64,000 bases of DNA from Amphiscolops sp. MND2022 (taxonomy: Eukaryota): the NCBI GenBank assembly GCA_964187785.1, contig OZ076409.1, forward strand, positions 42,038,001 through 42,102,000. Direction: 5' to 3'. The stretch's first letter is position 1; each line of letters starts with the position of its first letter. Position numbers and translations under genes: made by a program. The notes under the pieces are model-generated. The model was given only the letters and a program-made list of their open reading frames with translations, searched no databases and was not told where the DNA came from. This document shows, piece by piece, positions 48,067 through 49,221 of this stretch.

Positions 48067-49221
48067 CTACCGATCACGACTACGATCGATTTTGTCTTTT
48101 GATTTAGCTTTTGTGATTAGGACGTATATGAATCGTTTTAGATTCATGTCCCAGTAAGGTATTGTATCCCCCTTGAGTGGTTTCTGTTTTGCGCAAGATT
48201 CTTTTAACAAGGGTATGTTCGTTAGGATTTCTTTCGAGAAGCCTTTGGCTGGCTTCAGATCTGCCGGGACAAAGATCATGATGGAGTCGGGTCTGCTGAG
48301 GATTGTAGTAGAATTTCCTCCTTCTATTCTGATGCAATCGTTCATATCTTGTGAAGGGATGGTGGAGTGCAACAGGAAACAGTCATTGTATTCTTCGTTT
48401 TCGTTTAGGATAGCGTAGGCGAGTTCCGTAGGGTTTCTAACTTGGTATTTTGGAATTTCTTGGTCTAATACGTCGAGCAGAGAGTATCCAATAGTTCCTT
48501 TTACTAGGGTGATTGTATGGTTTTTGTTATTTTCCATGACGATTGGCAAAGTCTTCTCAAATCTTGTACAAAGGACATTTATAAAATTTAGTCCTGTAGA
48601 GACTGCTTTTCTGTTGGGTAGGAACGTAGATCCGGGAGGAAAGGAGTTCTTGGGGTTTTCCGGTGCAAATTTGTAACATCTTGTCGTCTTTGGTTCGATA
48701 TACATTGAGTGAGGAATTCGGACTGAGAGTATTTGTGATACGTAGGGGTAACATTTGTTGAGTTGTAGACTGCCATAGCAGAAAGTATTTATAGGTCTTT
48801 TGAGTTCTATGCCAGGAAGATCAAAGTGTATTTTGTTAACTTGTTCTTGACAGAAGTTCATTCCAAGGAGGTTTTGGGTCTTCATCTCTGTTATCCAGAC
48901 TGTCAGTGGGAAGTTATGTTGTCCATCGGAATCGTAGTAGAGTTTGAGGGTGATGTATCCCATCATAGGGATGATCTGCCCAGAGTAGTTCCGTGTTGTG
49001 TTGTTACTTCTGCTGAGTTCGAGGTCTTGTTGAAATTGACAGAGTTCTCTAAAGGTCCTGTAGTTAATGATTGAAGATGTTGCCCCAGTGTCTAGTAGAA
49101 ATTCGATTTCTAAGCCACTATCTTTTTGTGAGTCTCCGGCAGCAAAATAATAAAGATTAAGACTAAATTTTAGTGGGGCAGTGCTGCTGTTACGGTTTTT
49201 CGGAGACCTTAATAGTTTAAA
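48067..49221 (-). CDS. pol: Element B pol, N-terminal part (protease, beta-rich linker, start of TARG1-like macrodomain), truncated at about 48085
   Basis: -1 frame open from the slippery site: FKLLRSP...IEFLLDTGATSSII (protease) ...NLLGMNF...DSIMIFVPADL...RFIYVLITK, then runs into unrelated AT-rich DNA. Confidence 0.88.
   Translation of the reverse strand, partial: FKLLRSPKNRNSSTAPLKFSLNLYYFAAGDSQKDSGLEIEFLLDTGATSSIINYRTFRELCQFQQDLELSRSNNTTRNYSGQIIPMMGYITLKLYYDSDGQHNFPLTVWITEMKTQNLLGMNFCQEQVNKIHFDLPGIELKRPINTFCYGSLQLNKCYPYVSQILSVRIPHSMYIEPKTTRCYKFAPENPKNSFPPGSTFLPNRKAVSTGLNFINVLCTRFEKTLPIVMENNKNHTITLVKGTIGYSLLDVLDQEIPKYQVRNPTELAYAILNENEEYNDCFLLHSTIPSQDMNDCIRIEGGNSTTILSRPDSIMIFVPADLKPAKGFSKEILTNIPLLKESCAKQKPLKGDTIPYWDMNLKRFIYVLITKAKSKDKIDRSRDR
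49081..49221 (-). promoter_or_regulatory. -1 frameshift signal of element B
   Basis: CCT TTA AAC TAT TAA at the gag end (T TTA AAC at 49221-49215); GTCTCCG/CGGAGAC stem and a second possible pairing TGCCCCA/TGGGGCA. Confidence 0.8.

Follow-up and report, generated by a model that had tools for sequence, protein, structure and literature searches.

A TARG1-like macrodomain with replaced pocket residues between the protease and reverse transcriptase of a Gypsy retrotransposon family

It was through viral macrodomains that ADP-ribosylation became known as a defence against viruses. If TARG1-class domains recur in the Pol polyproteins of Gypsy elements, this would suggest that retrotransposons face the same conflict, and the class concerned is the one that works on acidic residues and on the ends of nucleic acids. 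The window analysed here, a 64,000-nucleotide stretch of contig OZ076409.1 of Amphiscolops sp. MND2022, brings this question into focus: an earlier note, made from its letters, described TARG1-like macrodomains at different Pol positions in two Gypsy lineages, one of them cut short, and proposed independent captures or a relocation under shared pressure from host ADP-ribosylation. Is the cut domain a real macrodomain, to what kind of element does it belong, and does its pocket still look like that of an ADP-ribose eraser? In our view, the most likely history, as judged from sequence, is that an ADP-ribose eraser was gained by the ancestor of its family (here called B) and that it would now be a pseudo-enzyme with an altered pocket in the window's branch.

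The truncated domain and the family that carries it

The features of the window are collected in Table 1. The stretch is AT-rich and also contains a queuine tRNA-ribosyltransferase exon, a DDE transposase ORF, and, on the minus strand at 28421-30443, broken gag/protease-like ORFs from a further type of LTR element, with direct repeats on either side (about 26019-26973 and 31676-32516).

Table 1. Positions in the window of the elements, ORFs and domains discussed in the text
Feature	Position	Strand	Remark
Element A, complete Gypsy	583..14757	-	LTRs 583-3743 and 11596-14757, 99.56% identical
Macrodomain of element A	7210..7647	-	Between RNase H and integrase (pol 5290-10122); TARG1 E 2e-20
Copy B, 5' part of pol	48067..49278	-	Aspartic protease (aa 55-144), spacer of ~170 aa, truncated macrodomain
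Copy B, break point	48067..48084	-	Family sequence left after KSKDKID; stop 5 codons on
N-terminal 84 residues of TARG1-like macrodomain	48085..48336	-	P0002 residues 211-294
LITK	48109..48120	-	Lys aligned to catalytic Lys84 of human TARG1
Copy B, gag ORF	49209..50669	-	Retrotrans_gag E 1e-4
TTTAAAC slippery heptamer, just 5' of gag stop	49215..49221	-	pol in -1 frame; frameshift inferred
Single LTR common to C and B	51700..53191	-	TGTCGC...GCGACA; ends inferred from signals
Element C, accessory ORF with TRAF-type MATH domain	53306..54289	-	Pfam MATH_2 E 1e-11
Element C, env-like ORF	54839..56998	-	Monjiviricetes fusion glycoprotein family, E 3e-31
Element C, pol (RT, RNase H, integrase)	60004..63999	-	99.7% identical to P0002 residues 420-1750

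The ORF of copy B opens with an aspartic protease (Pfam E 3e-6), and the macrodomain fragment, starting with CIRIEGG at 48336, includes both an altered first loop, IFVPADLKPAKGF, and the LITK motif pointed out in the earlier note, whose lysine falls on Lys84 of TARG1. The fragment is the N-terminal part of the domain, as the note had claimed, and covers about 60% of it (84 of ~143 residues) rather than two-thirds. Searched alone against the PDB, it found nothing significant (one chance match, E 0.39), and its ORF has no Macro match in Pfam. The likeness is more than chance because the fragment matches all 19 longer relatives (E 3e-55 to 1e-9; 19 proteins from 2692 candidates) and also the domain of element A (35% over 65 aa, E 2e-5, tblastn inside the window).

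One of these relatives, P0002 (1750 aa), matches the ORF of copy B at 100% identity over 294 aa, including all 84 shared domain residues, and its domain is uncut, which supplies from another copy the full domain that the earlier note had hoped to recover. By both sequence and structure, the closest solved macrodomain to this uncut domain is TARG1. It matches five human TARG1 sequences (E 3.7-3.9e-10), with 25% identity and equal size. An AlphaFold model (pLDDT 93.8), built on a 58-row alignment that contained canonical homologues, which favours a TARG1-like fold and on which the model depends, places TARG1 chains in ranks 1-8 of a Foldseek search (TM 0.86-0.88), followed by DarG. The ESM Atlas returned only generic Macro-like clusters (score 0.91), and Pfam Macro (PF01661) matches the sister proteins P0012 (E 2e-4) and P0185 (E 4e-5) and gave no match for the window ORF, P0002, P0046 or P0257. 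The TARG1-like peptide is thus real, on the strength of its family, the uncut domain and the model, and the macro fold stands.

In P0002 and its relatives, the order of Pol is protease, spacer, TARG1-like macrodomain, RT, RNase H and integrase. The placement after the protease and before RT is therefore correct for the family; in the window, copy B breaks off at about 48085 and no RT follows the fragment. The stretch that holds the fragment is a broken tandem copy, without function of its own. The domain is a regular part of the family, being present in 109 of 109 B-family proteins that span both flanks (195 examined). Copy B and element C are one family in tandem and share one LTR, which is preceded directly by the purine tract of C and followed, from 51696, by a TGG primer-site-like sequence and then the gag of B; its ends rest on these signals, as one copy only lies in the window. 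With gag, the protease-RT-RNase H-integrase order, an LTR, a purine tract and a primer-site-like sequence, the family is a Ty3/Gypsy one. The Pol of element C is identical to P0002 at 99.7% over all 1331 residues, and its own macrodomain would lie some 190-630 bases past the window edge.

Several other parts of these elements should be mentioned. The spacer between protease and macrodomain (48400-48830, minus strand) consists of about 170 conserved residues, occurs also in the related metagenome contig L001, and has no Pfam match; a dUTPase-like fold for it was considered and is unsupported, the predicted model reaching a pLDDT of only 34. In element C, the MATH ORF sits between the env-like gene and the 3' LTR and is an instance of a Gypsy element that has taken up an immune-signalling adaptor. 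The pol-env interval (57564-60409) of the same element contains ORFs at 59609-60409 (minus), 57898-58323 (minus) and 58793-59449 (plus), and the two of them that were scanned gave no useful Pfam match; three repeats of about 170 bp lie at 57059-57533.

L001 also bears on the age of the domain. Its RT-RNase H is 68% identical to that of P0002, and it has an open frame of 1165 aa (1707-5204) with protease and RT and no macrodomain at the B-family site; a frame change sets this frame off from the integrase ORF at 5162-6790. The macrodomain is optional for the wider group, because L001 is without it at this site. In the protease region, L001 shares only 31-35% identity with B members, whereas B branches share 63% with one another. 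This suggests that the macrodomain was gained in the B ancestor, a view that rests on distances, since the RT trees leave L001 unplaced. A metagenome scan made with the domain gave no relative among 135 pattern matches, and a scan of viral contigs gave none among 22.

Pocket residues and constraint on the domain

Residues are numbered as in human TARG1, from alignments that are consistent with G43, I44 and G123 in PMC5928194. The counts were taken over those of the rows P0001-P0246 that have a domain match (23 of the window family, 155 of sister B subfamilies and 34 of the A type), among the cluster members listed, at most 15 per cluster, and each count uses the rows that have a residue at the column. 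Among the window-family rows listed, Lys84 is kept in 22 of 22 and Gly43 in 21 of 21. The first loop, H32-C-x-S35, has become Ile, Phe and Pro in 21 of the 21 rows listed, with His32 replaced by Ile and Ser35, which we take to be a catalytic position of TARG1, by Pro in all of them. The second loop, G121-C-G123-L-D125, reads A-S-E-L-E (22/22 rows listed), that is, Gly121 has become Ala, Gly123 Glu, and Asp125 also Glu, the acid being kept and the residue changed. Pro118 is replaced by Leu, likewise in 22 of 22, and Met40 and Cys122 are replaced too. Since these rows are 83-100% identical, they represent about one event. The only distant support for the altered pocket comes from P0257, where, at 45% identity over the domain, IFVPADL, Lys84 and Glu125 are shared and position 123 is Asp.

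The other groups keep more of the motif. Sister B subfamilies retain GCGLD (among the rows listed, Gly123 in 146/154, Asp125 in 148/154, Lys84 in 141/152 and His32 in 137/148). They are without the N-terminal Gly-Asp, with Ser in 140 of the 147 rows listed at the Asp20 position, whose role is presumably adenine binding, and because this Gly-Asp is absent, the motif-intact subfamilies should not be assumed to be active. A-type rows form a third pattern, with Val123 in 31 of the 32 listed, Asp125 in 31/32, Lys84 in 30/34 and His32 in none of 30. In 105 comparison domains drawn from the best 150 of 3440 profile matches, Gly123 and Lys84 are both universal (105/105); these are the matches kept for the tree, a selection that favours intact motifs, and they are unassigned to elements. 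Among rows that are element-borne or possibly so, Gly123 is kept in 10 of 11. A charge shift toward RNA binding was also looked for and not seen: altered and canonical B domains have equal net charge (median +4), which gives no hint of improved RNA binding.

What the replacements would mean can be read from human TARG1. According to the accessible text of PMC5928194, G43E, I44E and G123E each abolish ADP-ribose binding and activity, and the G123E protein has a stability above that of the wild type and retains RNA binding. The catalytic dyad is Lys84 and residue 125 (PMC7050489, where the available text writes Glu125 and the PDB sequence has Asp). The retained LITK lysine, to which the earlier note drew attention, is no evidence of activity, because G123E alone kills both binding and hydrolysis in TARG1. 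We consider it probable, at roughly 0.6, that the window's form of the domain no longer binds ADP-ribose and has been retained as a folded binding or structural unit. One objection to the pseudo-enzyme reading is that the change of Asp125 to Glu is conservative and that the Lys/acid pair survives.

This objection leads to the rival that survives best, namely, that the domain of the window sublineage is a still-active eraser directed against host PARP or sirtuin ADP-ribosylation, with A and B being convergent. The rows listed do keep Lys84 and an acid at 125 throughout (22/22 each), the fold is intact in the predicted model, the fusion is seen again in other Gypsy lineages whose motifs are intact, and divergent catalytic residues have a precedent within the class in SCO6735 (in the available text of PMC7050489). 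On the contrary, Glu123 is the very change that makes human TARG1 binding-dead, His32, Ser35, Met40, Pro118, Gly121 and Cys122 are replaced along with it, and element A, the supposed parallel, has Val123 and has lost His32. We therefore regard continued activity as unlikely.

Is the altered domain, then, still under constraint? All of the following rates are protein identities, not dN/dS. Compared with the sister protein P0007, the domain shows 36% identity, below the 63% of its flanks (Fisher p 1e-7), whereas among the sister subfamilies themselves domain and flanks are alike (73-75% vs 75-76%; p 0.64 and 0.81), which points to a rate shift on the window's branch. Within the window sublineage, the domain (83-90%) is below its flanks (93-95%), significantly so in two of three pairs (p 2e-4 and 4e-3; third pair 0.19), and it stands far above the linker between RNase H and integrase (59-65%) in all three (p 1e-6 to 2e-5). 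These identities indicate a domain that is still constrained within the sublineage. They also bear on a second rival, which ranks after continued activity and which we hold to be improbable: that the domain is a functionless passenger in slow erosion, kept because Pol must stay in frame and fold. Its faster divergence than the flanks in two of three sublineage pairs would fit, as would the comparison with P0007, where its conservation does not exceed that of the linker (36% vs 33%, p 0.7), and the existence of L001, which lives without it. Against this stand the margin over the linker within the sublineage, the lack of internal indels in the aligned copies, and the persistence of the core and Lys84 even in P0257. 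Four canonical rows agree at 50 columns; the three altered rows all retain 23 of these, have one new residue in common at six, and vary at 21.

Least probable of the readings weighed is that the domain acquired a new ligand and became an enzyme or reader whose Lys/Glu pair performs Schiff-base chemistry on, for example, a nucleic-acid end or lesion from reverse transcription: the six new residues (Ile, Phe, Pro, Leu, Val and Glu) are common to P0002, P0033 and P0257, the whole IFVPADL strand, Glu125 and an acid at 123 are found in all three across 45% identity, and the TARG1 dyad is similar to the one in the glycosylase OGG1 (in the accessible parts of PMC7050489 and PMC8501950), but the shared replacements may simply descend from a common ancestor, P0257 and P0002 differ elsewhere in the second loop, and a substrate is suggested by none of the analyses.

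We return to the eraser that became a pseudo-enzyme. The B-family ancestor would have acquired the domain as a Lys84/Asp125 eraser which, to go by the chemistry of TARG1, probably freed acidic residues in the element's proteins, or the ends of RNA or cDNA, of ADP-ribose. As the domain would be made only through the gag-pol -1 frameshift, it would be packaged with RT and integrase in the particle. In the window sublineage, the fold and Lys84 are kept while the pocket is rebuilt, and the present form most likely persists as a folded non-catalytic module, either an RNA- or protein-binding unit or a structural unit in Pol.

Other Gypsy Pols and the origin of the A and B domains

Element A was described in the earlier note as a second Gypsy lineage with the macrodomain between RNase H and integrase, and this is confirmed on both counts: the domain lies there, and the RT-RNase H of A is only 32% identical to that of B/C. 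The LTRs of A are unusually long (3.16 kb) and contain internal tandem repeats of 29-30 bp; because they are nearly identical to each other (Table 1), the insertion is recent. Where the canonical sequence is PRIGCGLD, element A has PRIGCVDD, and its domain appears to have been altered separately from that of B, by different replacements. P0398, which has an intact motif, is collinear with A from RT across RNase H to the domain, and thus the position of the domain in A may be old and its alteration secondary.

The fusion is not confined to these families. A search with a 7-row profile found 3440 proteins at E <= 0.001 among 1.84 billion, of which the best 150 were used, and 83 of the listed matches (82 of at least 190 aa, plus P0247) were scanned with Pfam. 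RT, RNase H or integrase was detected in five of the 83 scanned from these best 150 of 3440: the domain follows RNase H in P0291 (Athalia rosae, a sawfly), P0378 (Rhynchophorus ferrugineus, a weevil) and P0347, and follows integrase in P0325 and P0348. The automatic JGI label of P0325 joins "transposase" and "O-acetyl-ADP-ribose deacetylase". Two cluster members confirm an RT-RNase H-macro order (P0398) and an RT-RNase H-integrase-macro order (P0399). As read from these sequences, the TARG1-like domain occupies at least three Pol positions, and its fusion recurs. The position between protease and RT belongs, among the proteins examined here, to the B family only; a candidate second protease-macro fusion, P0297 (34 aa, E 0.013), was left uncounted.

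Other arrangements came up in the same search. In P0384, the TARG1-like domain is followed by a GDSL/SGNH esterase, an order that presumably resembles ORF1 of some non-LTR elements. In P0307, P0360, P0312 and P0389, it is joined to a DNA ligase, accompanied by BRCT in P0307, or to NADAR domains. The weevil protein P0397 carries such a domain both ahead of gag and behind RNase H, and is possibly a gene model joining tandem copies.

Do the A and B domains go back to one capture? Three domain trees were made, one with 131 rows and two with 60 hand-picked rows; human TARG1 was left out, matches below 110 aa and most B-like fragments were dropped, and ten further rows were removed by hand. In all three, the B domains form a single clade (SH-aLRT 94 and 97; bootstrap 100), as do the A domains (100), and the two clades are never sisters, on a backbone that is unsupported. 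The A+B split is absent from the listed bootstrap splits. Forcing A and B into a single clade lowers the log-likelihood by 3.7, a difference that the AU test does not reject (p-AU 0.43; p-AU 0.81 in a quick AU test with a poor free tree). A Trp-Asp shared before the RYIY strand was considered as a sign of common origin and is not borne out by the trees. The B domain groups with P0321 (bootstrap 100; SH-aLRT 87 and 90 in the other trees), together with two or three unassigned short proteins. P0399, a cluster member of P0321, has its domain after integrase and an RT only 28% identical to that of B; the close domains and distant RTs hint, with moderate support, at an element-to-element transfer between the B and P0321/P0399 lineages.

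The idea of a shared pressure from host ADP-ribosylation is weakened for the two domains that prompted it, because neither retains Gly123, which is Glu in the B sublineage and Val in element A; it fits better the motif-intact sister B subfamilies and the other Gypsy elements. A wider picture may be drawn in which animal Gypsy elements repeatedly took up TARG1-class erasers, exchanged them across distant lineages and placed them in at least three Pol positions, host ADP-ribosylation of retroelement proteins, RNA or cDNA would be a widespread and so far unrecognised anti-transposon defence, and the two lineages here would have independently rebuilt the pocket as a ligand or nucleic-acid module that keeps the lysine. 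As a whole, we find this picture doubtful.

Comparison with known systems

A link between ADP-ribosylation and retroelements is on record: SIRT6 silences L1 by ADP-ribosylation of KAP1, according to the accessible text of PMC4695847. Our literature search, outside which lay most subscription papers and supplements, found no report of macrodomains in Gypsy elements. The accessible passages of PMC4695847, PMC8003356, PMC7729036, PMC8195603 and bioRxiv 2021.11.30.470311 do not describe a macrodomain-Gypsy fusion, and the main text of PMC13524379, on envelope-carrying retrotransposons, has no macro or ADP passage in its accessible part. What is surprising is the recurrent capture combined with the alteration of the pocket in both window domains while sister lineages keep the catalytic motif. 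The B family offers a natural comparison at one Pol position, with motif-intact subfamilies, a sublineage bearing a binding-dead change, and a relative without the domain; the pair of altered and intact B domains suits the question of whether hosts use ADP-ribose tags against mobile DNA.

Macro domains in fish retroviruses are already known. Epsilon-like endogenous retroviruses of ray-finned fish have macro-domain ORFs (Basta et al. 2009, as cited in the available text of PMC4977317), and like the elements described here, they are LTR retroelements with a captured macro domain. The fish case, as far as that text goes, concerns additional ORFs of Retroviridae, whereas here the domain is an in-frame part of Gypsy Pol; the macro class of the fish domains lies outside this comparison. 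DarG, the next-best fold (PDB 5M3E and 5M31, TM 0.81-0.82), has the equivalent catalytic lysine (PMC8501950), but it is only 17% identical and is the antitoxin macrodomain of a bacterial toxin-antitoxin pair; no ADP-ribosyltransferase partner was seen among the element ORFs scanned with Pfam. Closer in context are two proteins annotated as "uncharacterized", XP_048515211.1 of Athalia rosae and XP_076269006.1 of Rhynchophorus ferrugineus, which like B have a TARG1-like domain in a Gypsy Pol. Unlike B, they have it between RNase H and integrase, as in element A, with an intact GCGLD, and their RT-RNase H is 30-32% identical to that of B. The closest counterpart of the domain itself is human TARG1 (OARD1, C6orf130; PDB 4J5Q, 4J5R, 4J5S and 2L8R), of the ALC1-like class, which has the same size and shares Lys84; the domain of the window sublineage differs from it in being embedded in a Gypsy Pol, in the replacements Gly123 to Glu, Asp125 to Glu, His32 to Ile and Ser35 to Pro, and in having no N-terminal Gly-Asp.
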